Shown: one piece after another, positions 9,591-34,715 of the stretch
Layout: each line of letters opens with the position of its first letter
Position numbering within the stretch: the stretch's first letter is position 1
Translations under genes and position numbers: made by a program
Notes under the pieces: model-generated
Told to the model about the DNA's origin: nothing
Database searches by the model: none
The model's input: only the letters and a program-made list of their open reading frames with translations
Source: an uncultured candidate division Zixibacteria bacterium
GTDB taxonomy: Bacteria; Zixibacteria; MSB-5A5; GN15; FEB-12
DNA length: 64,000 bases
Assembly (NCBI GenBank): GCA_963806185.1
Contig: CAWDXE010000007.1
Span: 64,001-128,000 of the forward strand
Reading direction: 5' to 3'

Positions 9591-9610
9591 ACGAATCGGC
9601 GACAACAACA

Positions 9611-10393: not shown

Positions 10394-10419
10394 GACAGAC
10401 ATCCTTTGGTTATTAAACA

Positions 10420-13233: not shown

Positions 13234-13664
13234 TGGATTCCGGACCGTTGGCCTGGAATGACAAAGGGGGTGAGTTAAGTGGACACTGAGGTTCTGGAGC
13301 CTTCGGCTCCAGAATGACAAGGTTAGAGATCGCAGAATGACTAGGGGGGTGGTGAAGGGCGGTTGGCACACGGGACGTACGCCAACCACTGAATGGGAGA
13401 AGGCGGTGGACACTGAGGTTCTGGAGCCTTCGGCTCCAGAATGACAAAGTGAAAGGCCCGGAATGACAATGGGGGTGAGTTAAGTGGACACTGAGGTTCT
13501 GGAGCCTTCGGCTCCAGAATGACGGAGGGGGGCCCAGAATGACAAGGTGAAATGGTCCGGAATGACAAGAAGGAGGTTTGAGGACTACGAGATTCTGGGC
13601 CAAGGGCCCAGAATGACAATGGGGGGAGGGGCCGGAATGACATTGGGGGAGAGTCCAGAATGAC
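13234..13664. repeat. Array of hairpin/GAATGAC repeats
   Basis: Three identical 40-bp units GTGGACACTGAGGTTCTGGAGCCTTCGGCTCCAGAATGAC (13279, 13406, 13484) and 11 GAATGAC motifs counted by eye. Confidence 0.85.
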
Positions 13665-13731
13665 TTTGGGGAACGGATCGGTTCCGCAAAAACCCCTTGC
13701 CCACAATGTTTTAGGCCGTCATATTCCGGCC

Positions 13732-15328: not shown

Positions 15329-15414
15329 GGAGAGGTGGCTGAGTGGTCGAAAGCGGCGGTCTCGAAAACCGTTATACCCTTCGGGTATCTAGGGTTCGAA
15401 TCCCTACCTCTCCG
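15329..15414 (+). tRNA. tRNA-Ser (CGA); island integration site
   Basis: GGAGAGGTGGCTGAGTGGTCGAAAGC...GCGGTCT-CGA-AAACCGT...GGGTTCGAATCCCTACCTCTCCG. Confidence 0.96.
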
Positions 15415-15417
15415 CAT
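15397..15417 (+). repeat. attL (21-bp direct repeat, tRNA 3' end)
   Basis: Identical to 31698-31718. Confidence 0.9.
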
Positions 15418-15716
15418 GTAACATATTGATATATAATTGGTTATGGCCATTTCTTGGCCGCCTGCCTTTTCGTACCCTCTCCGCTGTCAATATCTTTAAA
15501 GTTAGTCATTGTAGCAATGAGAACTACTCTAATTGCTGTTGATTCGATCCTCCATCCTTTTGCACTTCGAAGCTTTTAACAAACTATTGCACTGAATATC
15601 ACCAATCGAATAACGACACAAATGGCCCTCACGGCCTCCATCGATAAGACTTTGCCTGATTGTGATAAACTACTCTGATGCGACGGAACAACGGGTAAAT
15701 GCTCGCCAAAGATGTC

Positions 15717-15762
15717 TTGACACTCTGCCGATATGAATATATATTCGCCTAGGCGAATATAT
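15717..15762 (+). promoter_or_regulatory. Sigma70 promoter with overlapping palindromic operator (probable ArsR site)
   Basis: TTGACA (15717), 17 bp, TATATT (15740); perfect 24-bp palindrome ATATATTCGCCTAGGCGAATATAT at 15739-15762. Confidence 0.8.
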
Positions 15763-15817
15763 GAATATGTTGCGGTCTGGTTTACGGACTGAGTTAATAG
15801 AGTGAGAGAGTTTGAAA

Positions 15818-16414
15818 ATGAAAATGTCAGTGTATGATCCTGCTATGTGCTGCCCGACTGGTGTCTGTGGTCCGGCAGTCGATCCGAAACTGCCGCGCTT
15901 TGCAGCCGACCTCGAGTGGCTTGGAAATCAAGGCATAACCGTTGAACGGTTCAACCTGGCCCAGCAACCGGCGGCCTTCGCACAGAATCCGGTGGTAAAG
16001 GAAATGCTCGGTAAGCAGGGTAACGACTGCCTGCCGCTGATCTTGGTGGATGGCGCAGTCGTGTCCACGGTCAGTTATCCAACCCGAGAGAAACTCGCTG
16101 CCTTTGTCAATCTCTCGTATGCTCGGGTCCCCAGCATCTTCACCGATGCAGTTTCCGAATTGGTCGCCATTGGGGCCGCGATTGCCTCAAACTGCGAACC
16201 ATGTTTCCGCTTCCACTATGATAAGGCGCGGAAATTGGGTGTCTCTAAAGAGGATATGGCTCTGGCCGTCGCAATCGCTCAGGGCGTCAAAGAAACTCCG
16301 GCCAAGTCGATTCTTGAAATGGCTGATCGTTACCTCAAATCGAAAAGTACCGACGAGCCAATGACTCTTCCCATGGCAGAAGTCGCCTCCAAATCCAGCG
16401 GCAAATGCTGCTGA
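15818..16414 (+). CDS. arsD: Arsenic metallochaperone ArsD fused to a C-terminal AhpD/CMD-like domain
   Basis: YDPAMCCPTGVCG and RFNLAQQP (ArsD), then ELVAIGAAIASNCEPCFRFH (CMD CxxC); ends in CC. Confidence 0.88.
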   Translation: MKMSVYDPAMCCPTGVCGPAVDPKLPRFAADLEWLGNQGITVERFNLAQQPAAFAQNPVVKEMLGKQGNDCLPLILVDGAVVSTVSYPTREKLAAFVNLSYARVPSIFTDAVSELVAIGAAIASNCEPCFRFHYDKARKLGVSKEDMALAVAIAQGVKETPAKSILEMADRYLKSKSTDEPMTLPMAEVASKSSGKCC

Positions 16415-16427
16415 CCAAGGCTAGATT

Positions 16428-18227
16428 ATGTTGATACTAGATAACCCATCGAGGAATCTGTTCTTCACCGGCAAAGGGGGTGTGGGAAAGACATCGTTAG
16501 CCTGTGCCACGGCGGTGTCCCTTGCCGATCGCGGCAAGAGGGTGCTACTGGTAAGCACAGATCCCGCATCAAATCTCGATGAAGTCCTTAATGTGCACCT
16601 TTCCGCCGTCCCGACCGCGATACCGGACGCTTCCAACTTGTTCGCGCTCAATATCGATCCCGAAGCGGCTGCTCACGCCTATCGGGAGCGAATGGTCGGG
16701 CCGTATCGGGGCCTGCTTCCTGAAGCAGCCGTAGCCAGTATAGAAGAGCAGCTGTCTGGCGCCTGCACCACTGAGATTGCCGCGTTCGACGAATTCGCCA
16801 AACTACTGGGCGATCCCGCTGCGACGGCCGACTTCGACCACATCGTTTTCGATACCGCGCCGACCGGCCATACTCTGCGCTTACTGCAGTTGCCGGCAGC
16901 GTGGAGCGACTTCATTGAGTCGAGCGCGGGTGGGACCTCGTGCCTGGGTCCGCTATCCGGATTGCAGACGCAGCGTGAACTCTACGCGCAAACGGTCCGC
17001 GCATTGGCCGATCCAGCTATCACGACTCTGGTTCTCGTAAGCAGGCCGGAGCGAGCGGCTCTGCAGGAAGCGGACCGGACGCGACAGGAACTGTCGGCTG
17101 TCGGCGTTGGAAATCAGCACTTCATTCTCAATGGGACGTTCGTTGCCCAGGACCGCGAAGATCCAATTGCTTTGGCGCTTGAAGAACGTGGCAGACAAGC
17201 GGTGAACTCCATGCCGGCAGCTCTGGCACAACTTCCGCAGTCTCGAACACAGCTTCTTCCCTTTGGTCTGATTGGCGTACCTTCGTTACGGGCTCTGGTA
17301 AATGCGGACCCCCGAGAAACGACTCCAGCGGCACCTGCTCGACAAACTGCTGGAATCACTTTGCCGGCGCTTTCGACGCTGATTCGCCAATTGGAGACAA
17401 GCAAGCGCGGCGTGATAATGGTTATGGGCAAAGGGGGAGTAGGCAAGACCACTGTCGCGGCCGCTATTGCGGTAGCACTGGCCGATCATGGCCATACCGT
17501 TCACCTGACTACCACCGACCCGGCCGGACAGGTGCAGTCGGCACTGGCAAATAGTGTGGCGGGGCTGACCGTCAGCCGCATCGACCCCGTTGCCGAAACC
17601 GAGGCGTATCGTCTGGAAGTAATGCGCACTGCCGGTGGCAAGCTGGATGATCAGGGACTTCGTCTGTTAGAGGAAGAGCTACGCTCTCCCTGCACCGAAG
17701 AGATGGCGGTCTTTCGCGCGTTCGCGCAGAAGGTTGCCGAAGGGGCAAATGAATTTGTCGTGCTTGATACCGCTCCGACCGGTCACACGCTCCTGCTCCT
17801 GGATGCTACTGAGGCCTACCATCGGCAGGTCTCGCACACTATGAGTGATGTGCCGGATTCCGTTCGGCAGCTACTCCCGCGGCTGCGGGATGCGGAGTAC
17901 ACCAAGGTGCTCATCGTCACCTTGCCGGAAGCGACACCGGTCCATGAGGCCGCGCAACTCCAGAAGGATTTGAAACGAGCCGAAATCACGCCGCACGCCT
18001 GGGTGATCAACCAGTGTCTGACGCCGCATGCGGTCTCTGACCCCGTCTTGAAAACCAGGCAGGCGAGAGAAGGTCTGTTTATCGACGAGGTGACGCAGGT
18101 GCACAGCACAACGGCGTACATGATCCCATGGATGGAAGCAGGAGCAACTTTGGCAGACAGCCTGCGCAAAGTGGTGGCCGCCACGGCGGTAAGCGACAAA
18201 CCTATGGTCAGCAGACAAGGAAGTTAG
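16428..18227 (+). CDS. arsA: Arsenical pump-driving ATPase
   Basis: Two GKGGVGKT P-loops, two DTAPTGHT motifs, SGACT and SCLGP. Confidence 0.96.
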
Positions 18228-18232
18228 GAATT

Positions 18233-19306
18233 ATGGCGCAGCAGGAAGCAAAGCGATTGTCGTTTCTTGACCGCTACTTGACACTCTGGATTTTCCTGGG
18301 CATGGGAGCAGGCGTGGCACTGGGATGGCTGCTACCGCAGACCGAGCAGTTCATCAACCGCTTTCAGGTTGGCACGACCAATGTCCCGATCGCCATTGGT
18401 CTCATTCTGATGATGTATCCTCCGTTGGCGAAAGTGAAGTACGAGGAGCTTGGAGACGTATTCCGCAACACGAAAGTTCTCGGGCTCTCACTATTACAGA
18501 ATTGGGTGATCGGACCGATTCTCATGTTTTTCCTGGCGATTGCGTTTCTCTCGGGCTATCCCGAGTACATGGTCGGGTTGATCATGATCGGCCTGGCGCG
18601 CTGCATTGCCATGGTGATTGTCTGGAACGAATTGGCCAAGGGAGACACCGAGTATGCCGCTGGACTAGTGGCATTCAACTCGATTTTCCAGGTGCTCTTT
18701 TATTCAGTCTATGCCTGGGTGTTCATCACCGTGCTGCCGCCACTGTTCGGTCTCAGCGGCTCAGTAGTCGATGTCAGTATGAGGCAAATCGCCGAATCGG
18801 TATTCATTTATCTGGGGATTCCCTTTATCGCAGGTATGCTCACCCGCCTGATCGCGCTCAAGACCAAAGGACGGGAATGGTACGAGCAAAAGTTCATTCC
18901 GAAAATCAGTCCAATTACTTTGATCGCTCTGCTCTTTACAATCGTTGTGATGTTCAGTCTCAAAGGGAATCTGATCGTGCAAATCCCGCTTGACGTGGTG
19001 AGGATCGCGGTGCCACTCTTGATCTATTTTGTCGTCATGTTCCTGGTTAGTTTTTGGATGGGTCGCAAAGCGGGCGCAGACTACTCAAAAACGGCCACCC
19101 TGTCCTTCACGGCCGCCAGTAACAACTTCGAGCTGGCGATTGCTGTGGCCGTGGCGGTATTTGGCATTAACTCCGGCGCGGCCTTTGCGGCCGTTATTGG
19201 ACCGCTTGTCGAGGTGCCCGTTCTCATTGGATTGGTCAATGTGGCACTCTATTTCCAGCGAAAATACTTCGCACAACCGAACGCAGCTATGGAGGCGGCA
19301 CGATGA
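18233..19306 (+). CDS. acr3: ACR3-family arsenite efflux permease
   Basis: [39 protein letters not shown]. Confidence 0.96.
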
Positions 19307-19641
19307 AGACTCACGAAGCGTTTAAGGGGCTGTCTGATCCGACGCGGCTTCGCATCGTCGCGCTTCTGCTGGAGCAGGAACTCTGCGTGTGTGACTTGAT
19401 GGCCGTCTTGCAATTGCCTCAATCAACAGTGTCCCGTCATATGATACGCTTGAAAGCCGCGGGGCTGGTCGCGGATCGACGCGCGGGCAAATGGGTGCAC
19501 TATTGCCTGCTTGAAAATTCCCTGGTAAGCGATCTGCGGCGCCTGCTGCAGAACCATTTGGCCGGCGCTGAGCCCTATAAGAAAGACGCAACTGCCTTGC
19601 GACGATATGTCCGAAACGGGAACTGTGCTGAAAACTCGTGA
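19303..19641 (+). CDS. arsR: ArsR/SmtB transcriptional repressor (1)
   Basis: [26 protein letters not shown]. Confidence 0.92.
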
Positions 19642-19654
19642 GAAGATCGAACCG

Positions 19655-20095
19655 ATGAACGACAACAAGACACTGCGTATTTTGGTGCTGTGCACCGGCA
19701 ATTCCTGTCGATCGCAGATCGCCGAAGGGTACTTTCGTCACTATGGAGGAGACAGAGTGGAAGTCTTCTCTGCCGGGCTTGAGCCAAAGGGAGTCAACCC
19801 ACGGGCGATTCAGGTGATGAAGGAAGTTGGCATTGATATATCGCAGCATGCTTCAGACCACCTGTCAAAGTACATGGGCCAGTCATTTGATTACGTCATT
19901 ACTGTCTGCGATAACGCGGCGGCCAATTGCCCGGTGTTTCCGGGAGCCGGAACGAAACTGCACTGGCCGTTTGAAGATCCCGCCGACGCGACTGGCACGG
20001 AAGAACAGGTGTTGGCGGTTTTCCGTCAAATACGTGACGAAATTGGTGCAAAGGTGAAGAACTGGTTGAGGACAACCCAAGAGCTGGCCCGATAG
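19655..20095 (+). CDS. arsC: Arsenate reductase (thioredoxin-coupled, LMW-PTP fold)
   Basis: CTGNSCRS P-loop; TVCD...NCPVFP; HWPFEDP. Confidence 0.93.
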   Translation: MNDNKTLRILVLCTGNSCRSQIAEGYFRHYGGDRVEVFSAGLEPKGVNPRAIQVMKEVGIDISQHASDHLSKYMGQSFDYVITVCDNAAANCPVFPGAGTKLHWPFEDPADATGTEEQVLAVFRQIRDEIGAKVKNWLRTTQELAR

Positions 20096-20247
20096 CTTTT
20101 CGGGATATGGCTTCCTTGTCCGACCAAAGGCAATGCGCAGTTTGTGAGTAAATGAACAACAGAGGCGCGACGCCTGTTTATAAAATGGAGAAAGAAGTCG
20201 ATTACATGGGTCCACGATAGTAAGGTAACCACAGAATGGAGGAACAG

Positions 20248-20997
20248 ATGTTCAGGAAAATCAGCATTGTGACCGTTGCTCTGCTGCTTATGGCGGTAGC
20301 GGCCTTTGGCGCGGCACAACAACAACTGGAAGCGGCCGCAAAATCCGGCAACGTGGCCTTCGTCTTGGTGTATGACGCCACTGCTACCACTCTCGAGCAG
20401 GCGCGTCAGCTAACCGCGCAGGCGGTCGGCCGCGTGCCCGGATCGATAGCGATCGAAGTCAATCGCGGTGACGCCTCCGAAGCGGATTTTGTGAAGCGAT
20501 ATGGGCTGGCTACTGCTCCGGTACCGCTCATCTTAGTGAGCTCATCTGCCGGCGTCATCACCGGCGGTGTCATCGCCGCCCAGGCCAATGTTGACCAACT
20601 GGTGAAACTTGTACCATCACCCAAGAAAGCTGAAATCATCCAGGCGTTGTCGCAGGGAAATGCCGTGTTCATTACCGCGAGTCGGAAGAGCATGGCGACA
20701 GCAACAACTGTCAATAGCGCATGCGCCGCCGCGTGCCAACAGATGGCTGGGAAATCGGTACAAGTGACTGTTGATATGGATGATCCAAAAGAGGCCGGTT
20801 TCCTGACCGAGATGAAAGTCAATCTGCAATCAGCAGAACCGATCACGTTGGTAGCCAACGCTCAGGGGCAGATTGCCGGGATGTACACTGGGGCCATGCA
20901 GGTTACCGATCTCGTGACCGCCGCGACCAAGAAAGTTGGCGGCTGTTGCCCATCGACTGTTGCCAAACCGGACGCTTCATGCGCGCCTAAGAAGTAA
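20248..20997 (+). CDS. Secreted/periplasmic Cys-containing protein upstream of ABC exporter
   Basis: Signal peptide; CAAAC and C-terminal GGCCP...SC. Confidence 0.7.
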   Translation: MFRKISIVTVALLLMAVAAFGAAQQQLEAAAKSGNVAFVLVYDATATTLEQARQLTAQAVGRVPGSIAIEVNRGDASEADFVKRYGLATAPVPLILVSSSAGVITGGVIAAQANVDQLVKLVPSPKKAEIIQALSQGNAVFITASRKSMATATTVNSACAAACQQMAGKSVQVTVDMDDPKEAGFLTEMKVNLQSAEPITLVANAQGQIAGMYTGAMQVTDLVTAATKKVGGCCPSTVAKPDASCAPKK

Positions 20998-21008
20998 GGA
21001 AAGCCAAA

Positions 21009-22229
21009 ATGAAGCTTCAAACTATACTCTGGCGCGAGCTATGGCTGCGAAAGTCGCAGCTCGTGTCGGCCTTACTTGGAATCACGCTTGGCATCGCCGT
21101 AATAGTTGGCATTCAATCGGTTTCAGCGGTTTCCGAGACAGCGGTCAAGGTAAGTCTCGACAACTTGGGGGCTAATATCCTGGTGCTGCCTCAAGCCGCG
21201 TCGGTTGATGACTACTATTCGTCTGATATTGACGCACCGACGTTTTCCGAAGACTATGTAGAACGACTTGCCACGTCGATGTTGCCGGGTGTCGACAACC
21301 TTTCCCCAAAGCTAACCCGGCGCGTGAAAGTTGGCGATGTGCCAATTATCCTCACTGGTATTCTACCAGCTAACGAGCTGGCTGCGAAACCGATTTGGCA
21401 AACGGCCGGTTTGGTCGGGGACGGTCTGAATGCAGCGTGTGATCCTGGCACCACGGCTAATCAGTCGTTTGGATATCAGGACGAACGGCTGCAACGCAAG
21501 GCGGTCGACTCGCTGGCGACCACTGATGTGTTGGTCGGTAGCAGCGCTGCGCAGCGGTTGAATCTGCGCGAGGGACAGACCGTGACAATTGAAGGTAAGA
21601 CTTTTACTGTTGCCCGCGTTATCCCAGAGACCGGCACCATTGACGACAGTCGCGTGTATGCCCACCTGCACACGGTCCAGCAGCTTTTGGGGACTGGCCG
21701 GCAGGTCAGCGCCATCGAGATCATGGGGTGCTGCTCAGCTATCTCGGATGGACTCCTTGGCAAGCTCCGCAATATCTTGCCCGATACGCGGATTACGACG
21801 ATCAATCAGATTGTCAGCACGCAAATCAGGACCAATCAGCTCATGAGCAAGATCTCCATGGTCTTTCTGGTGATCATCATCATTGTCGGAGCCATAACGA
21901 TTGGCAACTACATGTGGGCGAATGTCGAAGAGCGACGTCGCGAGATCGGCATTCTGATCACCATCGGTACGAAGCGTTCGGCCATCTACCGTCTCTTCTT
22001 GTCAAAAGCAGTGTTCCTGGGTGTAATTGGCGGCATTGGCGGTTTCATCGTTGGGACCGGGGCTGCAATGATTCTTGGACCGCAACTAGCTGGGCTACAT
22101 GTTTCGCCGATGCCACTTTATTTGCTGTTATCAGTGGTCGTAGCAGTGTCGATAGCATTGCTTGGCAGTATTCTTCCGGTTTACCGGGCAGCGAGATTTG
22201 ACCCAGCTGTCATCATGCAGGAGGTGTGA
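21009..22229 (+). CDS. ABC transporter permease, MacB/FtsX family
   Basis: N-terminal TM, large periplasmic domain (contains GCCS), ERRREIGIL, three C-terminal TMs, PVYRAARFDP. Confidence 0.9.
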   Translation: MKLQTILWRELWLRKSQLVSALLGITLGIAVIVGIQSVSAVSETAVKVSLDNLGANILVLPQAASVDDYYSSDIDAPTFSEDYVERLATSMLPGVDNLSPKLTRRVKVGDVPIILTGILPANELAAKPIWQTAGLVGDGLNAACDPGTTANQSFGYQDERLQRKAVDSLATTDVLVGSSAAQRLNLREGQTVTIEGKTFTVARVIPETGTIDDSRVYAHLHTVQQLLGTGRQVSAIEIMGCCSAISDGLLGKLRNILPDTRITTINQIVSTQIRTNQLMSKISMVFLVIIIIVGAITIGNYMWANVEERRREIGILITIGTKRSAIYRLFLSKAVFLGVIGGIGGFIVGTGAAMILGPQLAGLHVSPMPLYLLLSVVVAVSIALLGSILPVYRAARFDPAVIMQEV

Positions 22230-22898
22230 GTGATGTTTGCCATTCACAACTTGAGCAAGGTCTACACCTCTCAACACGGCACGGTTCGGGCACTGGATGA
22301 CATATCGCTGACCGTCGAGAAAGGCAGTTTTGTTGCCGTGACCGGCGGGTCCGGTTCGGGCAAGACGACCATGTTGTTGACGCTTGGCGGTCTCATTCGA
22401 CCGACGAGCGGAACGGTGTCGTTCTCCGGCAAGACCATTTACACTATGTCCGAGCCAGAGCTTGCCGAGTATCGCAATCGCAAGATTGGTTTTGTACTAC
22501 AGACATTCAATCTGATCCCATACCTTACAGCGTTGGAAAACGTCATGCTTCCGATGATATTTTCTTCTAACGGCAACGGCACCGCGCAAGCCCAGGCGGA
22601 AGCATTGCTGGAGAAAGTAGGCCTAAAAGATCGCGAAGAACATCTGCCGAGAGAGCTGTCCGTGGGGCAACAGCAGCGGGTGGCTATTGCGCGAGCTCTC
22701 GCCAATAGTCCGGAGGTAATTCTTGCTGACGAGCCAACGGGCAATCTGGATCCCAGTCTGTCACTCGAAGTGCTGAAGATTCTCAAACGGCTCAATGAAG
22801 AAGAGGGACGAACGGTTATCATGGTGACTCACAGCCCGGAAGCGGCGACATTCGGGAATCGCCAGGTTCGCCTAAAAGACGGTAAGGTACACGACTGA
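22230..22898 (+). CDS. ABC transporter ATP-binding protein, LolD/MacB family
   Basis: GGSGSGKT, LSVGQQQRVAIARAL, ADEPTGNLD. Confidence 0.95.
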   Translation: MMFAIHNLSKVYTSQHGTVRALDDISLTVEKGSFVAVTGGSGSGKTTMLLTLGGLIRPTSGTVSFSGKTIYTMSEPELAEYRNRKIGFVLQTFNLIPYLTALENVMLPMIFSSNGNGTAQAQAEALLEKVGLKDREEHLPRELSVGQQQRVAIARALANSPEVILADEPTGNLDPSLSLEVLKILKRLNEEEGRTVIMVTHSPEAATFGNRQVRLKDGKVHD

Positions 22899-22899
22899 T

Positions 22900-23836
22900 A
22901 TGGGGAAACACGACAACAAGCGCGACCGGCACGGCAAAAAGCACTCCGGCAAGCGCAGCCACAGGCAATCGGTAGGTAGCGGGACCTCCCGCCATTGGGT
23001 GGGATGGGCAGCGCTCGCAGTTGTCCTGGTCGCCGGCGTAGGCATCGCATGGACGCTTTTCAAAGAAGAAAGTCCGAGAATTACTGCGTCTACTCCGGTG
23101 ACCAAGCTTCCGGAGTCAGTGTTACCAAAGAATCTGGAGACCAGGCCCGCTGAGTCGAAGCCAGTACCGCCACCGGCTGCGCCGCGTCTCGACATTCCGG
23201 AACCGGAATTTGATTTCGGCTTCGTGCCACAGAATGCGAAGATAAGTCACGTGTTCTGGCTACACTCGGCCGGCACCGACACACTCAAGATCATCAAGGT
23301 CAACCCCGGCTGAGGCTGCACCCAAGCGCCCTTGGAAAAGGACGCACTGGCTGTCGGCGACAGCACTACCCTTGAGATTATCTTCAGTACCGGAAGCTAC
23401 AGTAACCAGGTGAGCAAAGCGCCGTCGATATTGACCAACGAAGCGCAGGGGGCCAAAAACGTCACCATCAAGGCCAACATCGTCACAAAGCCGGACTCGA
23501 CTTATCCGATCGTCATTCAACCGCCCAAGATCGAATTTGCGAGCCGGCGACAGCACCGAAACGATGGAGTTTACGATCACGAACAAGTCGGACGGAGCGC
23601 TAATTCCGAGAATTGTTAGCGCACCGCGCCGTTTTGTCAGTATAAACTTGCCGCAGTCTATTCCGGCGGGCGAATCTACCATAGGGAGTGTTACACTCAA
23701 GAAGGCCGGACTTAAGACGGGTTTCGAGAAGTCAGTGACCGTCCAATTAAACGATCAGGCGAAGAGCCGCTTTACCATTCCGATCAAGCGATCGGTGGTT
23801 GGCCAAGCTGTTGTTGTTCCGGCCGGAGGGCATTGA
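22900..23836 (+). CDS. Membrane-anchored DUF1573-like (Ig-fold) probable selenoprotein; UGA at 23311-23313; +1 frameshift near 23537
   Basis: FDFGFV...HVFWL...LKIIKVNPG-TGA-GCTQAP aligns with the family's C-G-C-T motif; the frame continues through ORF 23332-23619 and then 23537-23836. Confidence 0.75.
23326..23345 (+). promoter_or_regulatory. Candidate bacterial SECIS hairpin
   Basis: GCGCCCTT-GGAA-AAGGACGC (7 bp, one mismatch); G-first apical loop 20 nt after the UGA. Confidence 0.55.
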
Positions 23837-23920
23837 GTTTCGTGACGGCCCAGGACACATAGCGCATTTGCATCATTTGAGGATAGTCGAACAGTCTACC
23901 CAAATAACAGGAGGATTCCA

Positions 23921-24379
23921 GTGAAACGATTTATTATAACGATGGCCCTTTTCCTTATGGCCATTACAATGGCCTGTAACAAATCATCGGAAACTCCTGC
24001 TCGCCAAGGTGCGGGCACTAATTCGGGCGCAGCACAGCCTGCCACTGCATCTCCCGATTTGTCCAAGGCACCACCTGTCACCGTGGCTAATCCTCCTGCG
24101 GCTACACCACAAACTCCCTCTGGGTATGCTACTGCTCCGGGCATGAATCCTCCGCACGGTCAACCGAGTCATCGCTGTGATATTCCCGTTGGGGCACCAC
24201 TTAATTCGCCGCCAGGTACACAGTCGACACCGGTCGTTCCTTCACAGCCCAATGCCACTGTCCAGACTCCGCCAACTACGACGGCTCCGGGCATGAATCC
24301 ACCGCATGGACAGCCGAATCATCGCTGTGATATTCCCGTAGGAGCGCCCCTCAGCTCAGCCCCTTCGCAGCCGAAGTAA
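23921..24379 (+). CDS. Pro-rich lipoprotein with two 24-aa His/Cys repeats
   Basis: Lipobox TMAC; TAPGMNPPHGQP(S/N)HRCDIPVGAPL twice (24131-24202, 24281-24352); GGAGG RBS. Confidence 0.8.
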   Translation: MKRFIITMALFLMAITMACNKSSETPARQGAGTNSGAAQPATASPDLSKAPPVTVANPPAATPQTPSGYATAPGMNPPHGQPSHRCDIPVGAPLNSPPGTQSTPVVPSQPNATVQTPPTTTAPGMNPPHGQPNHRCDIPVGAPLSSAPSQPK

Positions 24380-24437
24380 TTGTGCTGGCTACAGTTAAGA
24401 GGAGAGCGAAAATTCGTGAGAAATTCTGTTGATCTTG

Positions 24438-24461
24438 TTGGTAATTTGGCGATATTACCAA
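24438..24461 (+). promoter_or_regulatory. Inverted repeat upstream of second arsR (probable operator)
   Basis: TTGGTAAT-N8-ATTACCAA; a related TTTGGC-N6-GCCAAA site lies at 24835-24852. Confidence 0.55.
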
Positions 24462-24491
24462 GTATAAGGAAATAGCGAAGGAATTCAAAGT

Positions 24492-24818
24492 ATGGATAAT
24501 AAGACTAAAGCACATTTCGAGGCCAAGGCCAGAATTATTAAGGCGATGGCGCATCCGACGAGGCTCTTTATTGTGGATGAGCTGTCGCGAAAGGAACGGT
24601 GTGTATGCGATCTGACCGAAATGATCGGCGCGGATACATCGACCGTGTCCAAACATCTGTCCATTCTAAAAGCGGCCGGGATAGTGTCCGATGACAAGCG
24701 CGGTCTGCAGGTCTTCTACTCCCTGAAGGTGCCGTGCATCTTGAATTTCTTCGGATGTGTTTCGCAGGTGCAGAAGCTGTCGGCGAAGGAGCAGGTCGCG
24801 CTGGTCGTACGAAAGTAG
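24492..24818 (+). CDS. arsR: ArsR/SmtB transcriptional repressor (2)
   Basis: KAMAHPTRL, ERCVCDL, STVSKHLSILK. Confidence 0.9.
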   Translation: MDNKTKAHFEAKARIIKAMAHPTRLFIVDELSRKERCVCDLTEMIGADTSTVSKHLSILKAAGIVSDDKRGLQVFYSLKVPCILNFFGCVSQVQKLSAKEQVALVVRK

Positions 24819-24878
24819 TTTTTTTGGGTCCATCTTTGGCTGTTTGGCCAAATAGACATATGAAAATAGGCGTTTGAT

Positions 24879-26180
24879 ATGAAATGGAAAGCAGAGTGGA
24901 AGCCCCTGACCCTAATAATTATCATATTCCTGGTCAGTTTCTATCTGCCGGTCGGCAAACCGCGTTTTGACAATGCGGTTACTGAATCGTTACAACTGGT
25001 AAAATGGTACGCGCAAGAGCATGTTCTACTCTGCCTGATACCGGCGTTCTTCATTGCCGGAGCGATTGGAGTCTTTGTCAGCCAGGCTTCAGTCATGCGC
25101 TACCTGGGAGCCAAAGCCAACAAGGTTCTCGCCTACGGTGTGGCGTCGATCTCTGGAACCATTCTGGCAGTATGCTCATGCACGGTGCTCCCCCTGTTTG
25201 CGGGTATCTATCGGATGGGCGCAGGGCTCGGCCCGGCCAGTGCCTTTCTCTACTCCGGACCGGCAATCAACGTGCTGGCCATATTTCTGACCGCGCGGAT
25301 TCTCGGGATCGAAATGGGTGTGGCCCGCGCAGTCGGCGCGGTCGTGTTCAGCGTAATCGTTGGGCTCATCATGCATTTCATCTACCGCAAAGAGGAAACG
25401 GCCAAAGCTGACGCTCAAATGGCTCTGCCCGATCCACCGCCGACGCGCCCGCTCTGGCAGACGATACTCTATTTTGCTTCAATGATAGCCATACTCGTCT
25501 TCGCCAACTGGGGCAAGTCAAGCGAACCAGTCGGCATCTGGAATGCAATTTACGAACTCAAATGGTATCTGACTGCCTTGTCAGCTGCGGCCCTCGGATT
25601 GATGCTGGCTACCTGGTTTAACGTCACCTGGTGGAAAATTGGCGCGGTCGCAGTTCCGGTCGCGATCCTAGGCCTGGTCTTTCGCGAATATCCGTTGATT
25701 CCGTTCGCTGCGGGGTTTGTAGGGCTCTCCATCATTACCAGCACCGATGACGGCGAGATGGGGAGCTGGTTCGAACAGACCTGGGGATTCGCCAAGCAGA
25801 TTCTGCCGCTACTTCTCTTTGGCGTTCTCGTCGCAGGACTTCTCTTGGGCAGGCCCGGACACGAGGGAATCATTCCTTCCGAGTGGATCAGTCGCTCGGT
25901 GGGCGGCAACTCACTCTGGGCGAATCTCTTTGCCTCGGTAGCAGGCGCCTTTATGTATTTCGCCACGTTGACAGAGATCCCGATTCTGCAAGGTCTCCTG
26001 GGGAGCGGCATGGGTAAGGGTCCGGCGTTGGCGCTTTTGCTGGCCGGACCGGCGCTTTCTCTTCCGAGCATGCTAGTACTGCGGAGCATTATGGGCCTTA
26101 GAAAGACGGCAGTGTTTGTGAGTATCGTGGTAGTCATGGCTACTATCACGGGAATGACGTACGGCTATTTCTTTGGATAG
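24879..26180 (+). CDS. Permease, DUF318/ArsP-like
   Basis: Polytopic; AVCSCTVLPLF, FLYSGPAIN, YFATLTEIP, GPALSLPS. Confidence 0.82.
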   Translation: MKWKAEWKPLTLIIIIFLVSFYLPVGKPRFDNAVTESLQLVKWYAQEHVLLCLIPAFFIAGAIGVFVSQASVMRYLGAKANKVLAYGVASISGTILAVCSCTVLPLFAGIYRMGAGLGPASAFLYSGPAINVLAIFLTARILGIEMGVARAVGAVVFSVIVGLIMHFIYRKEETAKADAQMALPDPPPTRPLWQTILYFASMIAILVFANWGKSSEPVGIWNAIYELKWYLTALSAAALGLMLATWFNVTWWKIGAVAVPVAILGLVFREYPLIPFAAGFVGLSIITSTDDGEMGSWFEQTWGFAKQILPLLLFGVLVAGLLLGRPGHEGIIPSEWISRSVGGNSLWANLFASVAGAFMYFATLTEIPILQGLLGSGMGKGPALALLLAGPALSLPSMLVLRSIMGLRKTAVFVSIVVVMATITGMTYGYFFG

Positions 26181-26190
26181 GAGATACACA

Positions 26191-26424
26191 ATGAAACTGA
26201 TTCAAATCCTAGGCACGGGCTGTCCCAAGTGCAAGAAGCTCGAAGAGCAGACGCGCGAAGCGGCCAAGGCCATCGGCCTTGAGTGTGAGATCCTCAAGGT
26301 GACCGATATCGAGGCGATCATGCGCATGGGCGTGATGATGACCCCGGGGCTGGCAATCGACGGGCAGGTTGTTCTGTCTGGGAAAGTACCGTCGGTTGAT
26401 GAACTCAAAAAGATTCTGGCCTGA
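26191..26424 (+). CDS. Small redox-active disulfide protein (thioredoxin-like)
   Basis: IQILGTGCPKC, GVMMTPGLAIDG. Confidence 0.88.
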   Translation: MKLIQILGTGCPKCKKLEEQTREAAKAIGLECEILKVTDIEAIMRMGVMMTPGLAIDGQVVLSGKVPSVDELKKILA

Positions 26425-26437
26425 AAGGGAACCTCAG

Positions 26438-26929
26438 ATGAATAAGGCAAAAGTCGCAGCGATCCTCGTAGGCATCGCAGCAATGTGGGTGGGTGGATAC
26501 CTGTTGGCCAATGCGGGTAACGGAACAGCAGATTCGCCGTCCACCGTTTCTCCTACCGCCGCCACGACCGATAGCGTTACCGCTATACCCCACAAAGTCG
26601 TTGCCTACTATTTCCACGGCAATGTCCGCTGTGTGACCTGTCGAAAGATCGAAGCATACACCGGCGAAGCGATTGACAGCGGTTTCGCGGCTGAACTCAA
26701 ATCCGGATTGCTTGAGTGGCATGCGATAAACACGGATTCATCGCAAAACGAGCATTATTTGGAGGACTACCAATTATTCACCAAGTCGGTAATTCTCTCA
26801 GATCTGCACCATGGTAAGCAGACCCGCTGGAAAAACCTCGACAAGATCTGGACGCTGACGGGAAACAAGTCCGACTTCATGAAATACATCCGGGATGAAG
26901 TCAGGATCATGCTGGATTCAACCAAGTAA
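26438..26929 (+). CDS. ArsF-like thioredoxin-fold exported protein (1)
   Basis: N-terminal TM/signal; YYFHGNVRCVTCRKIE; WKNLDKIW. Confidence 0.75.
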   Translation: MNKAKVAAILVGIAAMWVGGYLLANAGNGTADSPSTVSPTAATTDSVTAIPHKVVAYYFHGNVRCVTCRKIEAYTGEAIDSGFAAELKSGLLEWHAINTDSSQNEHYLEDYQLFTKSVILSDLHHGKQTRWKNLDKIWTLTGNKSDFMKYIRDEVRIMLDSTK

Positions 26930-26943
26930 AGGAACGACAGACA

Positions 26944-27414
26944 ATGACCCCTCGCAAAATCATCACGTTTGTTCTGCTCCTTCTGGTTGGAGTGAGTATT
27001 GTCGTCTTCGTGGCGCGACAAACAGGTCTTATTTCCGCGGACCTGGTATCAATCGGTGCATCAGCGGATGCGCCCCGACACAAGGTCATCGCCTATTATT
27101 TCCACGGCACGGTGCGGTGCGAAACCTGCCTGAATATCGAGCACTACACCGACGAAGCACTCAAGACCTACTTTGCCGATGACCTGGCCGATGGCCGCTT
27201 GGAATGGCGCGTGATCAACCGCGAAGTACCACCCAATGAACACTTTGTACAGGACTATGGACTGTATTCTCAGGCTCTGATCATCATCGACTCAATACCG
27301 GGACAGAAAGCCGAATACAAAAACCTCGAGGCCATGTGGGATTACGCCCACGACAAACCGGCGTTTATGGCATGGGTGCGTGGTGAAGTCGATCAGTACC
27401 TGAGGAGGCTGTAG
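26944..27414 (+). CDS. ArsF-like thioredoxin-fold exported protein (2)
   Basis: YYFHGTVRCETCLNIE; paralog of the preceding gene. Confidence 0.75.
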   Translation: MTPRKIITFVLLLLVGVSIVVFVARQTGLISADLVSIGASADAPRHKVIAYYFHGTVRCETCLNIEHYTDEALKTYFADDLADGRLEWRVINREVPPNEHFVQDYGLYSQALIIIDSIPGQKAEYKNLEAMWDYAHDKPAFMAWVRGEVDQYLRRL

Positions 27415-28103
27415 TGGAGTCACTCTACGTTGCGGCTCTTTCGGCGATCTGGCTGGGCATACTGACTTCCATCAGCCCCTGTCCGCTCGCCACCAACATT
27501 GCGGCCGTTTCCTATATAGGCAAGCATGTGGCCAGTGGCCGGCATGCGGTGTGGTCCGGACTTCTCTATGTACTGGGCCGTCTCGTGACCTATGTGGCGG
27601 TGGGCGCGATCGTGACCGCTGGTGTTCTCTCCATTCCGGGCGTGTCGAATTTCCTGCAGAAGTACATGAACAGCTTGCTTGGCCCGGTCCTTATCCTGGT
27701 TGGACTCGTCTTGCTGAACTGGTTACCGATCAATATACCGGGCCTTACCCCCAGCGATAAAATGCAGGAACGCGCCTCACACGGGAGTCTTTGGGGTGCA
27801 TGTGCCCTTGGTGCCATCTTTGCGCTGTCGTTTTGCCCTGTGTCGGCGGCTCTGTTCTTCGGAAGTCTGATTCCGCTATCGGTTCAGCACCACTCATACT
27901 TACTCTTGCCATCGCTATACGGCTTCGGTACTGGATTGCCGGTGCTGGTGGTGGGCATTATGCTGGCCTATAGTGCTAAATCGGTGGGAAGGCTGTTTAC
28001 CGGTATCCAGCGCTTTGAGAGTTGGGTCCGCGTCATGACAGCGGTGATCTTTATTATCATCGGGATCTATATGATCCTGCGATACGTTTTTTACCTATTC
28101 TAA
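27414..28103 (+). CDS. ArsG-like / DsbD-CcdA family membrane protein
   Basis: LTSISPCPLATNIAA and ALSFCPVSA conserved Cys-Pro motifs. Confidence 0.8.
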   Translation: MESLYVAALSAIWLGILTSISPCPLATNIAAVSYIGKHVASGRHAVWSGLLYVLGRLVTYVAVGAIVTAGVLSIPGVSNFLQKYMNSLLGPVLILVGLVLLNWLPINIPGLTPSDKMQERASHGSLWGACALGAIFALSFCPVSAALFFGSLIPLSVQHHSYLLLPSLYGFGTGLPVLVVGIMLAYSAKSVGRLFTGIQRFESWVRVMTAVIFIIIGIYMILRYVFYLF

Positions 28104-28172
28104 TCATGGGCCGGTGCCGGGCAAGAGCTCGACGCCGCCACTTACGCAATTCAAACGCATGCAAATGTTCGA

Positions 28173-28215
28173 TTGACACTCGTGCGAGAATCCATATATT
28201 TCGATATATGTCGAA
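28173..28215 (+). promoter_or_regulatory. Sigma70 promoter and operator for the arsR-hgcAB operon (likely leaderless)
   Basis: TTGACA (28173), 16 bp, TATATT (28195); TTCGA-N6-TCGAA (28200-28215) overlaps the ATG at 28208. Confidence 0.65.
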
Positions 28216-28573
28216 CTATAGTACTAAGACCCTCAAGCGTGTTTCGCAACAGTTTGCCGCCCTGTCTAATCCCAACCGAGCCGCAATCTTTGCGCGACTG
28301 GCCGGTTGTTGTTGTGGAACGGCCGAGACCTGCAGACATGACGCCATGCGCACGTGCGTAGGAGATTTGGGAAAAGATCTCAGCATCGCCGCTTCGACGG
28401 TGTCTCACCATATCAAAGAGCTCCATCGGGCTGGTCTGATTAAGCTCGAACGATGTGGCAGAACGGTCAGATGTTGTGTTGATACAAAGACCGTGAAGGA
28501 AATGGCTGGATTTCTAGATGGCGCAACCGCAGCGGGACGACAAGCGCCGACGAACAAGCCGAAACGAGCCTGA
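28208..28573 (+). CDS. Cys-rich ArsR-family regulator (3) heading the hgcAB operon
   Basis: FAALSNPNR, GCCCG, CVGDL, ASTVSHHIKEL, RCC; eight Cys. Confidence 0.85.
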   Translation: MSNYSTKTLKRVSQQFAALSNPNRAAIFARLAGCCCGTAETCRHDAMRTCVGDLGKDLSIAASTVSHHIKELHRAGLIKLERCGRTVRCCVDTKTVKEMAGFLDGATAAGRQAPTNKPKRA

Positions 28574-28589
28574 CAATCGGAGGATAGAC

Positions 28590-29186
28590 GTGGACGATAT
28601 CAACAAAGACAATCTACCCGGCTGCTGTGAGGGTGGCCAGTGCTGCTCACCAACGCCAGGTGGCGATACCCGCAAACCTGACCGTTGGAAATCTCTGATG
28701 TTCTCGGGAGTGATTTTGCTGGCATGTGCAGTGGCAGCATACTCTCTGTTCTGGCGAAGTCCGGATGCCGCGACCTCTGCCTGTTGCCCGCCGGGATCAG
28801 CGGCCGCGGTAGCTTGTGGCTCGTCGGCGGTCATTCCGGTCTTCGACCACTCCATGGCTCCGGCGGGTTTGTCGCTGTATCTCTTGTTATCGGCGACCGA
28901 TTCGCTTAGCCAGCAGCAGTTCGCGGTAATAAGTGAAGTTCGAGGGGCCGTGGAGTCAAAGGGGTCGCGGTTGGAACTTGAGACGTTGAGGCCCAGCGAC
29001 GGCTTCTTTCCGGCAATGGTCAGTGGTCATGGTATCACTTCCTTTCCGGCATTTCTGGTGTTCGGACAGCGCGACAGTTTGACCCTGAGTCTCACGAGTT
29101 TTCGAAGCGATACGATATTGAGCGTCTTTGTCCTGCCAGCTGAATCGTCGGAGGTGTCAACTACGTCCGAAACTAACCCTCAATAG
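28590..29186 (+). CDS. Membrane-anchored protein with three Cys-Cys pairs
   Basis: GGAGG RBS + GTG; GCCEGGQCC, one TM, ACCPPG. Confidence 0.7.
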   Translation: MDDINKDNLPGCCEGGQCCSPTPGGDTRKPDRWKSLMFSGVILLACAVAAYSLFWRSPDAATSACCPPGSAAAVACGSSAVIPVFDHSMAPAGLSLYLLLSATDSLSQQQFAVISEVRGAVESKGSRLELETLRPSDGFFPAMVSGHGITSFPAFLVFGQRDSLTLSLTSFRSDTILSVFVLPAESSEVSTTSETNPQ

Positions 29187-29189
29187 CTG

Positions 29190-29895
29190 GTGAATGCGAT
29201 GGATTGGATAGAGCAAGTACTGCGATCCCCGGAATTCAGCATGGCTGCCCTGCCGGCGGCCCTCGTGCTGGGCCTGCTAACGGCAGTAACGTCGTGCTGC
29301 AATTTTGGCATCATCGCAGCTGTGGTAGGATATGCCGGAAGTCGCGACGAGCAGTATCATCGCCGCGACGCCGTCGTGACGGCCATTTCCTTCATGGTCG
29401 GCACGGTCGTGGCCCTCTCCGTGTTGGGGCTTCTCATCGGCCATGTCAGCGGACTAGCCGGAACCTCATTCAAACGCTACAGCACACTGATCATGGGGTT
29501 CGCTGTAATAATTGCCGGCCTGTGCCGCACTGAAGCTGCTGCCATTTCGATTGCCCTCCGTTAACTGGTCAAAAGTGAAGCGTCCCGGCGGTCGTTTCGG
29601 GTCGATTGTTTTCGGATTAGTCATCGGAACTGCGAGTATCGCGTGCACTGCAGCCTGCTGCGGCCCGCTGGTTCTCGTAGTCTTAGGCATGACCGCAATA
29701 GCGGGTCAGGCACTGCAGGGGGCAGTGATACTGGGGCTCTTTGCTATTGGCTACGGTCTTCCTCTGGCTGCGCTGATGCTTGGCGTTGGCCTCGGACGAA
29801 CCTCTGCGATTGCCCAGAAGTTGACTAAACCGATTCGCGTCGTTGCCGGATCGGGACTGCTTTTTGTGGGGTTCTGGTTACTCGCGACTATGTGA
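29190..29895 (+). CDS. CcdA/DsbD-like thiol-transfer membrane protein (+1 frameshift near 29522)
   Basis: ORFs 29190-29564 and 29512-29895; TSCCN and CTAACCGP at the positions of the two CcdA Cys motifs; FAIGYGLP. Confidence 0.72.
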
Positions 29896-29907
29896 GGATG
29901 CGCGGAT

Positions 29908-31062
29908 ATGCTTGACACACCAGACCGTGGTTTGCCGCCCTGTTCGCCTGATTGCTGCTCGCCGGTGCAGATCACTACTCTTCAAAGCCATCCCCGGGTG
30001 GCGATACGCATGCCCATTCCCAAAGATCCGTGGGTCATCGGAACGGTTGCATCGCCATTCGGGGAAATCCCTCAGGTTGATGCGAAGTTGCAGTGGCTCG
30101 ATACTCTTGGCTCCTGGAAGGCTCGATGGGGCATCGGGCGTTCGAATTACAGCGTCCAGCCGCGCCTCTATGCCGTCGGCAATCCCGCCAAAACATCACC
30201 GGTGTTCGTTACGGCCAACTATAAGATGAGTTTTGACCGTCTCCGGTCGAACCTGGCTGATATCGACGGCTGGATCCTGGTTCTGGATACCAAGGGCATC
30301 AACGTATGGTGCGCGGCTGGTAAGGGCACCTTTGGCACCGAGGAACTTATCCGTCGAGTTGAGGTAGAGGGTCTGAAGCAGATTGTGTCTCATCGCCGCC
30401 TGATTCTCCCGCAGTTGGGTGCCACCGGCGTCAGCGCGCACCACACGCGCGAGCGCAGCGGTTTCCACGTTTTCTACGGCCCCGTCCGGGCGAAGGATAT
30501 TCCAGAGTTCATGCAAGCCAGGATGAAGGCGACCGAAGCCATGCGGAAAATCACCTTTACGCTGGCCGAACGGGCAGTCCTGATCCCGATCGAGTTTGTA
30601 AACAATCTTAAATACGCGCTCTTCGCAGCTGCGTGCCTGCTGCTACTCACCGGCGTTGGGTTGGATATCTACTCTCTGGATCGAGTGAAGGATTTCGGCA
30701 TCACCAATGCCGGCTTGGTACTTCTGTCAACTTTGTGCGGTGCATTGTTGCCCGCGCTGCTTTTGCCGTGGTTACCGGGGCGGGCGTTTTCGTTCAAGGG
30801 AGCTGCTGCCGGGCTACTGCCAGCAATCGGCATCGCCGCTCTGATGTGGTGGCATCCGGAGACTTTTCGCAATCGGGTCAGCGGCACTAGCTGGATGTTC
30901 ATTTTCCCAGCGGTGTCGAGCTTTCTAGGGATGAACTTCACGGGTAGTTCGACTTATACGTCGTTGTCAGGCGTCAAGAAAGAGATGCGCGTTGCCTTGC
31001 CAGCACAGATTTCAGTCGCTGTGTGCGGACTCGTATTGTGGCTAGTAGGATTGTTCATATGA
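29908..31062 (+). CDS. hgcA: Mercury methylation corrinoid protein HgcA
   Basis: TANYKMSFD, diagnostic cap helix GINVWCAAGKGTFG, LPQLGA, C-terminal TMs, NFTGSSTYTSLSGVKKEM; hgcB adjacent. Confidence 0.97.
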   Translation: MLDTPDRGLPPCSPDCCSPVQITTLQSHPRVAIRMPIPKDPWVIGTVASPFGEIPQVDAKLQWLDTLGSWKARWGIGRSNYSVQPRLYAVGNPAKTSPVFVTANYKMSFDRLRSNLADIDGWILVLDTKGINVWCAAGKGTFGTEELIRRVEVEGLKQIVSHRRLILPQLGATGVSAHHTRERSGFHVFYGPVRAKDIPEFMQARMKATEAMRKITFTLAERAVLIPIEFVNNLKYALFAAACLLLLTGVGLDIYSLDRVKDFGITNAGLVLLSTLCGALLPALLLPWLPGRAFSFKGAAAGLLPAIGIAALMWWHPETFRNRVSGTSWMFIFPAVSSFLGMNFTGSSTYTSLSGVKKEMRVALPAQISVAVCGLVLWLVGLFI

Positions 31063-31355
31063 CGACCAAGTATCTCTCGGGCGTTGTAACGCTCGAGCTT
31101 AATTCGGATAAGTGCAATGGCTGCGGTATGTGCCTACAGGTTTGTCCGCACGCCGTCTTTGCGCTCGAGAATAAGCGGGCGAAGATTGTCGATCTCGATG
31201 CATGTATGGAATGTGGGGCTTGTGCTTTGAATTGCCCAGAAGGCGCGATTAGCGTTCGGTCCGGAGTTGGATGTGCAGCGGGCATTTTGACCGGAGCTTT
31301 ACGAGGAACTGAACCCACTTGCGGTTGCGGAGATGACTCGGGGGGTTGCTGCTAA
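31059..31355 (+). CDS. hgcB: Mercury methylation ferredoxin HgcB
   Basis: CNGCGMCLQVCP and CMECGACALNCP 2x[4Fe-4S], GVGCA, C-terminal CC; ATGA overlap with hgcA. Confidence 0.96.
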   Translation: MTTKYLSGVVTLELNSDKCNGCGMCLQVCPHAVFALENKRAKIVDLDACMECGACALNCPEGAISVRSGVGCAAGILTGALRGTEPTCGCGDDSGGCC

Positions 31356-31697
31356 CATATGGCCTCAAGTGTGCACCGTAGTATTTCAACAGACATGTTG
31401 TATGATGTTGAAGTCACTTGTATAGCGGTTCAGCTAAAGTTGCATATCACAAAGCTATTTGCCAGAGTTGGGGCCGGAGCTTGCGAATATCTGTTGAATG
31501 CCTCGAAGCTCTTAAAACGGAATGCGCAATCCATGATCGGATTGTGGCGTTTGGGACCAATTGGGGACCGTGGGACTTCAAAACAGTCAATACGCACTAC
31601 GAATCATTCAAAACTATTTGATGACGCAATCAATTGGTGGAACTCACCTTACGGCGTAATTGACACAATGACAATCATTTATGGGAAACATACAGTA

Positions 31698-31718
31698 CGA
31701 ATCCCTACCTCTCCGCAT
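31698..31718 (+). repeat. attR (21-bp copy of tRNA-Ser 3' end)
   Basis: CGAATCCCTACCTCTCCGCAT identical to 15397-15417. Confidence 0.9.
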
Positions 31719-34621: not shown

Positions 34622-34715
34622 GCGGATGCCCTCCGTCACAAGTTGGTTGCCCCCTACAACGGTATCGACACAACTGACGACGGCCTGAACGGCCGTTGGA
34701 ATCCGGCCTGATATA

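Follow-up and report, generated by a model that had tools for sequence, protein, structure and literature searches.

What do two membrane-protein genes do when they stand between an arsR repressor gene and the genes for mercury methylation? The question arises from a five-gene cassette (arsR-ORF2-ccdA-like-hgcA-hgcB) on contig CAWDXE010000007.1 of an uncultured Zixibacteria bacterium, within a stretch of 64,000 nucleotides (nt) that we call the window; window coordinates count from its first letter. The pair bears on two open questions, the uptake of Hg(II) and the release of methylmercury (MeHg) by methylators. What HgcAB evolved for is itself stated as open (PMC11984097; PMC10349881). Our answer is that ORF2 and the CcdA-like protein, here called CcdA*, are an obligate membrane module of ArsR-headed metal(loid) operons, which has been coupled to hgcAB several times and which may move thiol-bound soft metal(loid)s outward across the inner membrane. 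We put the probability of this reading at about 0.4. It draws on gene order, obligate pairing, predicted folds, conservation of cysteines and the range of partner genes.

The cassette and its two middle genes

28173..28200, + strand: sigma70-type promoter, -35 TTGACA and -10 TATATT with a 16-nt spacer (11 of 12 consensus matches)
28200..28215, no strand: palindromic operator TTCGA-TATATG-TCGAA (TTCGA-N6-TCGAA) overlapping the arsR start codon, putative repressor-binding site
28208..28573, + strand: arsR, ArsR/SmtB repressor of 121 amino acids (aa) (NF033788, 55.8 bits, cut-off 55)
28590..29186, + strand: ORF2, 198 aa, without Pfam or NCBIfam match; AlphaFold model, thioredoxin-fold matches
29199..29895, + strand: CcdA* gene (ccdA-like, DsbD_TM fold), 231 aa when read through; PF02683 on both halves
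29908..31062, + strand: hgcA, corrinoid mercury methyltransferase (NF040863, 449 bits, cut-off 275)
30301..30324, + strand: cap helix of HgcA, motif NVWCAAGK
31059..31355, + strand: hgcB, 2[4Fe-4S] ferredoxin with C-terminal CC (NF040864, 128.7 bits, cut-off 99)

The five genes are co-oriented and tightly spaced (gaps of 16, 12, 12 and -4 nt), as a preliminary description of the window had stated, and the cysteine motifs it listed are all present: GCCCG and RCC in ArsR, GCCEGGQCC and ACC in ORF2, SCC and ACCGP in the CcdA-like product, DCC in HgcA and a terminal CC in HgcB. Since CC occurs in just 149 of the 1541 open reading frames (ORFs) of at least 300 aa in the genome, Cys pairs in five of five products are well above chance. 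ArsR belongs to the ArsR/SmtB family by its profile score and by the conserved palindromic operator over its own promoter; Cys35, Cys50 and Cys89 are conserved in the alignment. HgcA proteins are recognized by the cap helix N(V/I)WCA(A/G)GK and a C-terminal transmembrane (TM) domain; the match of the window protein spans positions 1-324 of the HgcA profile. HgcB has two CxxCxxCxxxC motifs, and its gene overlaps the preceding hgcA by 4 nt. By family membership the two are predicted to be an Hg(II)-methylating pair.

A promoter and operator had been proposed at 28173-28215, and both the site and the palindrome were found. The promoter scan gave 4 sites of such quality against 3.3 expected by shuffling, so that the scan alone is no evidence for the promoter. 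TTGAC and an AT-rich -10 element are kept at the equivalent position upstream of all nine related cassettes. The arsR ATG lies 7 nt 3' of the promoter end, and the mRNA is likely leaderless. The palindrome, with at most one mismatch, is present in 21 of 150 loci, nearly always covering the ATG of the same ArsR type. Because promoter, palindrome and very short leader recur in nine of nine related cassettes, the five genes probably constitute a leaderless, autoregulated operon.

The ccdA-like gene carries SCC and ACCGP as described, but it is not the single ORF it was taken for: SCC lies in 29190-29564 and ACCGP in 29512-29895, two frames split by an extra base at 29523. This base is absent from related contigs about 96% identical to the window (runs X2 and X4, two of the four runs tabulated), and the contig of run X3 over 29523 likewise shows one gap. 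As other genes of the window (pgk, DDAH, DUF1573) are frameshifted too, an assembly error is the likely, if unproven, cause of the split. Frameshifts were seen at about 2890 (pgk), 23540 (DUF1573), 29523 (the CcdA* gene), 34200 (DDAH) and 34650-35200 (apparently a DUF885-like gene), and they point to indel errors of the assembly; a genome-wide estimate flagged 5 of 67 genes, three of these being junction artefacts. Cys109 of the read-through protein is also an artefact, the step having been set a few bases late. A second, intact cassette of the same five genes lies on contig C1 at 669636-672772 (8637-11776 of locus L033). The two cassettes are 68-70% identical in DNA and 54-80% in protein, and the intact CcdA* is 72% identical to the window copy. 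Among 49 hgcA-positive genomes, only the window's own has two full-length hgcA matches.

The name CcdA* stands for a group scoring 266-349 bits in a search of 285 genomes of the phylum with a profile built from 10 CcdA-like sequences. The search matched 118 genomes, with 20 intact matches in the 266-349-bit range in 20 genomes, plus the two halves from the window. Generic CcdA proteins of the phylum reach at most 86 bits, leaving a clean gap. PF02683 matches both window halves, each below the gathering score because the gene is split; the intact paralog (P0068) carries a precomputed PF02683. The best Foldseek match of the CcdA* model, whose predicted local distance difference test (pLDDT) is 63.5, is CcdA 5VKV (probability 1.00, TM score 0.54, E 0.015), and the protein has the CcdA/DsbD-beta fold with cysteines in TM1 and TM4. 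These sit in SCC (TM1) and CxxxC(C)xP (TM4). The core Cys34 and Cys153 are kept in 74 and 76 of 76 representatives, and the extra Cys33 and Cys149 in 63 and 62. An extracytoplasmic thioredoxin partner with CxxC, usual for the family, was not seen in ORF2 (CxxC after the TM helix in none of 38 homologs), and an unlinked partner might be encoded elsewhere. Two other identities were rejected: ArsG (NF040495 gives 29.3 bits on the N-terminal half, cut-off 200, and the intact C1 copy has no match at 1e-8) and the CcdA of cytochrome c maturation (no such context). A sequence search of the PDB with the CcdA* profile and a tblastn search of plasmids returned no matches; for MerT, MerC, MerF and MerP, no hidden Markov model (HMM) of Pfam or NCBIfam matched at E 0.01.

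ORF2 consists of an N-terminal CC-x4-CC tail (predicted cytoplasmic), a TM helix at about residues 32-55, a Cys-bearing linker and a thioredoxin-fold domain with cis-Pro153. It has 36 representative relatives at E <=0.001. An AlphaFold model from 38 sequences (pLDDT 76) resolves the core at residues ~91-180 well (block pLDDT 92-97 over 101-180). The core has the four strands, three helices and cis-Pro of the thioredoxin fold, and is matched to thioredoxins by Foldseek (E 8e-5) and VIA (Z 8.7, root mean square deviation 3.1, 85 aligned). Leads from the ESM Atlas are thioredoxin-like, all below 0.9. Pro153 is invariant in the 38 homologs, 37 of which have at least three Cys before the TM helix, 25 with the CC-x4-C spacing. 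Mini forms reduced to tail-TM-tail lack the thioredoxin domain and keep Cys tails on both sides. In G029, G225, G233 and G221, Rdx domains with CxxU (selenoproteins) are fused N-terminally to ORF2, on the predicted cytoplasmic side. Such fusions were seen in L030 (6521-7576), L039, L040 and L041 with the in-frame TGA read, and by Rdx similarity only in L072, L074 and L108; in L041 a second TGA stands in frame ahead of the Cys tail.

ORF2 could not be assigned to a known family. ArsF was rejected (no NF040494 match, HHalign 1.7%, no CxxC), as was an active thioredoxin, the CxxC at the start of helix 1 being missing. Neither PF06953 nor NF033727 of ArsD matches ORF2, which has a TM helix and shares only the CC-x4-C spacing. 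A single-sequence scan of the genome contigs with ORF2 gave 2 loci, its sensitivity being too low to show rarity.

Directly upstream of CcdA*, the HMM recognizes an ORF2-like gene in 53 of the 57 non-redundant loci that are informative; in the other four, reading shows an ORF with Cys tail and TM helix at that place. The two genes are thus a conserved, obligate pair, with the predicted anatomy of a thiol relay. A complex prediction hints that the proteins may bind each other (score 0.54 against 0.01 for the best of three controls; the runs shared 91% or more of their contacts, and the partner pLDDT was 78 or higher). Among reference pairs, 116 of 157 solved ones and 2 of 215 mismatched ones attain the mark for this score; just 18 of these solved pairs, but both mismatches, do so with 0.60 or less.

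Neighbours of the pair within and beyond the phylum

The preliminary description had put the two middle genes forward as candidate accessories of HgcAB and proposed a neighbourhood survey of hgcA. Occurrence of hgcA in Zixibacteria has been reported (PMC12484752). Of 21 CcdA* loci in the 285 phylum genomes, 17 have hgcA as the next gene and 3 have arsM (329-343 bits, cut-off 263); one lies inside an arsR-acr3-arsC-arsP operon. Among the 11 module genomes outside the profile seed, hgcA is next in 7, arsM in 3 and the ars operon accounts for 1, to be compared with 49 of 285 genomes carrying hgcA. A Fisher test (17/20 against 32/265 genomes, p 5.5e-12) is inflated by the kinship of the genomes and carries no weight here.

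Seen from hgcA, the phylum has 50 loci, 3 of them within 500 bp of a contig end and 47 informative. CcdA* is present in 17 of these, canonical ArsG directly upstream in 3, and an ORF2 homolog alone in 1; 26 have no such module. The module is thus strongly enriched directly before hgcA, yet it is optional and no required part of mercury methylation. The expectation of enrichment was borne out. The idea of accessories held insofar as the genes form an obligate pair with relay-like anatomy that favours the position before hgcA; specificity for HgcAB found no support, given the ars and P1B partners and the module-free loci.

In the three ArsG cases (G255 and G252 above cut-off, G253 partly masked), the order arsR-arsP-arsE-arsF-arsG is followed by hgcAB (L139, L141 and L138), a second type of CcdA-fold gene in an equivalent position. 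The lone ORF2 homolog (G170, L136 2809-3339) lacks the N-terminal Cys tail and directly precedes hgcA.

For a wider survey, the best 80 of 139 relatives from a metagenome scan were pooled with 20 genome loci, one short fragment being dropped, and clustered at 90% into 76 representatives; 13 end at a contig edge and 63 are informative. The downstream gene was the first recognised gene within 1.3 kb, and ars genes within 6 kb counted as a metal link. Downstream of the pair came hgcA in 31 loci, a P1B ATPase in 9, arsD in 5, arsM in 4, single cases of arsP, acr3, arsR and an ICMT-like gene, and none of these in 10. A metal(loid) methyltransferase thus lies just downstream in 35 of 63 loci, and 56 are metal-linked. 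Across the surveys the pair precedes arsM, arsD/arsA, arsP, acr3 and P1B ATPases as well as hgcA. In metagenome-led representatives the hgc-linked share is 16 of 46. Named homologs outside Zixibacteria were one from Planctomycetota and one from a Deltaproteobacteria metagenome-assembled genome (MAG), the rest being metagenome contigs; none of the homologs found came from a named isolate.

On quick trees with 61 labelled rows, at least 9 switches of the hgc state are needed (L094, L105, L079 and L107, long or compositionally odd, were left out of this count), and a single hgc clade is rejected (p-AU 0.0013). In L076 (2390-4474) a CDF cation-efflux protein and a complete HgcA are encoded by a single open frame of 694 aa, either a true fusion or a lost stop codon.

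Cargo or electrons across the membrane

Several known systems resemble the module in part. ArsEFG (TIGR00412, NF040494, NF040495) likewise lies in ArsR operons and pairs a membrane protein of the CcdA fold with a single-TM protein encoded before it; ArsF is thioredoxin-like. ArsG and CcdA* are homologous (HHalign 95%, 24% identity), and ArsG, too, can directly precede hgcA. CcdA* differs from ArsG in having four Cys instead of two Cys-Pro sites and in scoring far below the ArsG cut-off, and ORF2 differs from ArsF in its Cys tails on both sides as well as in profile and lack of CxxC; ArsEFG is present separately, just upstream in the window. CcdA/DsbD-beta (PF02683, PF13386; 5VKV) shares the six-TM fold and one conserved Cys each in TM1 and TM4, whereas CcdA* has two extra Cys, a TM1 Cys not followed by Pro in many members, a partner without CxxC and no cytochrome c maturation context. 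MerT/MerP place vicinal Cys on both membrane faces beside a mercury-transforming enzyme, as the module does; no relation in sequence or fold was found, and the cassette is under ArsR rather than MerR control and has no merA. ArsD (NF033727), also thioredoxin-like in fold, shares with ORF2 the CC-x4-C spacing, whereas ORF2 is membrane-anchored, has its Cys motif predicted across the membrane from the fold, and lacks an ArsD family match. In ArsD the As(III) ligands are Cys12, Cys13 and Cys18 (PMC12415280).

Linkage of hgcAB to arsR and ars genes is known (PMC7438021; bioRxiv 10.1101/2022.10.17.512643; PMC10349881; PMC11984097). ArsR2 of Pseudodesulfovibrio mercurii ND132 and MAG loci with arsR, acr3, arsC or arsM by hgcAB resemble the cassette in the Cys-rich ArsR upstream of hgcAB and in the arsenic-gene linkage; in the accessible text of these papers no CcdA-fold or Cys-tailed membrane gene is named between arsR and hgcA. 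A paper of 2010 had already pointed to homologs of CcdA and thioredoxin within ars operons (PMC2963123). No description of the ORF2-CcdA* pair by hgcA was found in the literature searched, which excludes most subscription papers, and figures and supplements (gene-neighbourhood figures, Table S4 of the preprint), where the genes may appear unnamed. The pair appears to be an undescribed variant of the CcdA/ArsFG type of thiol modules in membranes; its tie to hgcAB recurs but is not exclusive.

How might such a module work? ArsR would leave its operator on binding a metal(loid). The cytoplasmic ORF2 tail, whose CC-x4-C(C) motif shares its spacing with the As(III) site of ArsD, could then pick up what the neighbouring enzyme makes or uses, for example MeHg from HgcAB or methylarsenite from ArsM. 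The four membrane Cys of CcdA* would carry the cargo across, by the alternating access known for CcdA, and the outer Cys tails of ORF2 would accept it. Candidate cargoes are methylated or inorganic arsenic or mercury. That cargo rather than electrons is moved is suggested by the missing CxxC after the TM helix and by the mini forms, which dispense with the thioredoxin domain and keep both Cys tails. Outward movement is favoured by the lack of a canonical electron acceptor, the surplus cysteines, the methyltransferase and efflux partners, and the listing of ArsG as an organoarsenical efflux transporter (PMC9144182). On this reading the module would be a general thiol hand-over or efflux unit for soft metal(loid)s, an ArsFG analogue that is not mercury-specific.

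Several points weigh against outward hand-over. The membrane topology has the K/R bias as its sole basis (N-tail inside in 31 of 38 ORF2 homologs). The Cys tails and linker are disordered and of low confidence in the model, so the ArsD-like spacing may be coincidence, and the Rdx CxxU domains fused to ORF2 point to redox chemistry. Because hgc-linked sequences served as seeds of the profiles, the hgc share is inflated; 26 of 47 informative hgcA loci of the phylum do without the module; the window's own CcdA* is frameshifted in the assembly; and a CcdA* very near the window copy on the tree (L049 1060-1395) has an unrelated non-hgc gene downstream. In ND132, moreover, no other ars genes accompany hgcAB (bioRxiv 2022.10.17.512643).

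Redox chemistry is the substance of one alternative. Here CcdA* would work as a classical CcdA, passing electrons outward from a cytoplasmic donor (thioredoxin, the fused Rdx selenoprotein or AhpD-like neighbours) with no metal crossing it. The electrons would hold the outer ORF2 Cys tails, or further thiols of the envelope, in the reduced state, in which they could trap metals or serve repair during metal stress. Conservation of both core Cys, the CcdA 5VKV fold match and the position of the Rdx domains on the predicted cytoplasmic side agree with this, and a paper of 2010 interpreted the CcdA and thioredoxin homologs of ars operons as a redox system; the same paper doubts trans-membrane electron flow because ArsC is cytoplasmic (PMC2963123). 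As the outer thioredoxin domain lacks CxxC in all 38 homologs and can be absent, and as two extra membrane Cys are superfluous for a single disulfide exchange, we think classical CcdA chemistry rather unlikely.

Alternatively, the module may serve arsenic or general metal resistance only, with hgcAB appended to the end of mobile ArsR operons and no functional contact between them. The known proximity of hgcAB to arsR, acr3, arsC and arsM (PMC7438021; PMC11984097) and the place of the cassette at the end of a tRNA-anchored arsenic island accord with this, and half of the informative module loci lack hgcA, as most hgcA loci lack the module. Mere appending sits poorly with the gene order: all 20 phylum hgcA loci with ars-type or module context including a transporter have a CcdA-fold gene directly upstream, and acr3, arsC and arsA are absent from all other phylum hgcA loci examined. 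In L075 and L077, too, it is the module that adjoins hgcA, rather than acr3 or arsC. Most hgc cassettes, moreover, stand by themselves: they comprise the five genes, have a repressor type of their own, include no further ars gene and are conserved at 36-72% identity. We hold a mere passenger role to be unlikely. Were it true, the pair would still be an unannotated two-gene ars component that goes under the label 'cytochrome c biogenesis protein'.

A MerP/MerT-like importer would capture Hg(II) or As(III) with the outer Cys tails, and CcdA* would pass the metal(loid) to the ORF2 tail inside the cell, from which HgcB/HgcA or ArsM would receive it as substrate. This fits the Cys pairs on both membrane sides, the downstream methyltransferases and the example of the mer system, which brings Hg to a cytoplasmic enzyme. 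It is very improbable, for import would do harm beside the pure efflux systems that also follow the module (ArsDA, Acr3, ArsP, P1B ATPases), and no Mer transporter family matches.

The preliminary description had offered three tasks for the pair: Hg(II) delivery, MeHg removal and reductant supply to HgcAB. The last fares badly, as the module was rejected as a source of reductant for the HgcA cobalt by electron direction and redox potential. Both HgcB and the corrinoid domain of HgcA lie in the cytoplasm, electrons travel outward through CcdA proteins, and thiol couples are too weak for Co(I) formation. Hg(II) delivery and MeHg removal are both compatible with the sequence.

If the module does move metal(loid)s, a transport step for HgcAB would have a name, and ArsG-type cargo transport in the CcdA fold would be extended. 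A bolder version of outward hand-over makes the pair the missing membrane step for HgcAB, an exporter of methylated soft metal(loid)s that HgcAB (for MeHg) and ArsM (for methylarsenite) would share; the two enzymes would then be interchangeable in methylate-and-export detoxification, and CcdA-fold proteins would form a wider class of organometal(loid) transporters. This version we consider distinctly unlikely. In any case there are now two concrete candidates whose cysteines are defined, their operator is conserved, and nature itself supplies a swap, in that the module heads either hgcAB or arsM.

The arsenic/mercury island and other features of the window

The cassette closes a 16.4-kb arsenic/mercury island (15329-31718), of which hgcAB are the last genes:

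15329..15415, + strand: tRNA-Ser(CGA), left end of the island
15812..28103, + strand: upstream ars genes arsD, arsA, acr3, arsR, arsC, a gene for an unknown 253-aa protein, ABC exporter, DUF1573, arsR, arsP, arsE, arsF, arsF, arsG
31698..31718, + strand: right end of the island, attR-like; perfect 21-nt copy of the 3' end of tRNA-Ser

No integrase was seen among the island ORFs. In the window hgcAB form part of an arsenic island anchored at a tRNA gene, a position that fits horizontal movement together with the ars genes.

The 253-aa protein (20236-20997) is a distant relative of the thioredoxin-like domain of ORF2 (HHalign 78%) and precedes the ABC exporter. In G068 (L035 2224-5850) this block of 253-aa protein and ABC exporter stands directly upstream of ORF2-ccdA*-hgcAB, replacing arsR. 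Of the 200 residues encoded at 15812-16414, only 4-98 match ArsD; the C-terminal half contains a CxxC and resembles small proteins, labelled AhpD/CMD-like, that occur upstream of ORF2 in several ars-type loci.

The DUF1573 gene (22900-23836), OS_HP2-like, has an in-frame TGA at 23311-23313, a probable selenocysteine codon, besides its frameshift near 23540; a tRNA-SeC lies in the window at 10419-10514. Finally, at 13341-13706 an apparently intergenic region contains repeated units, visible as repeated peptides of spurious ORFs.

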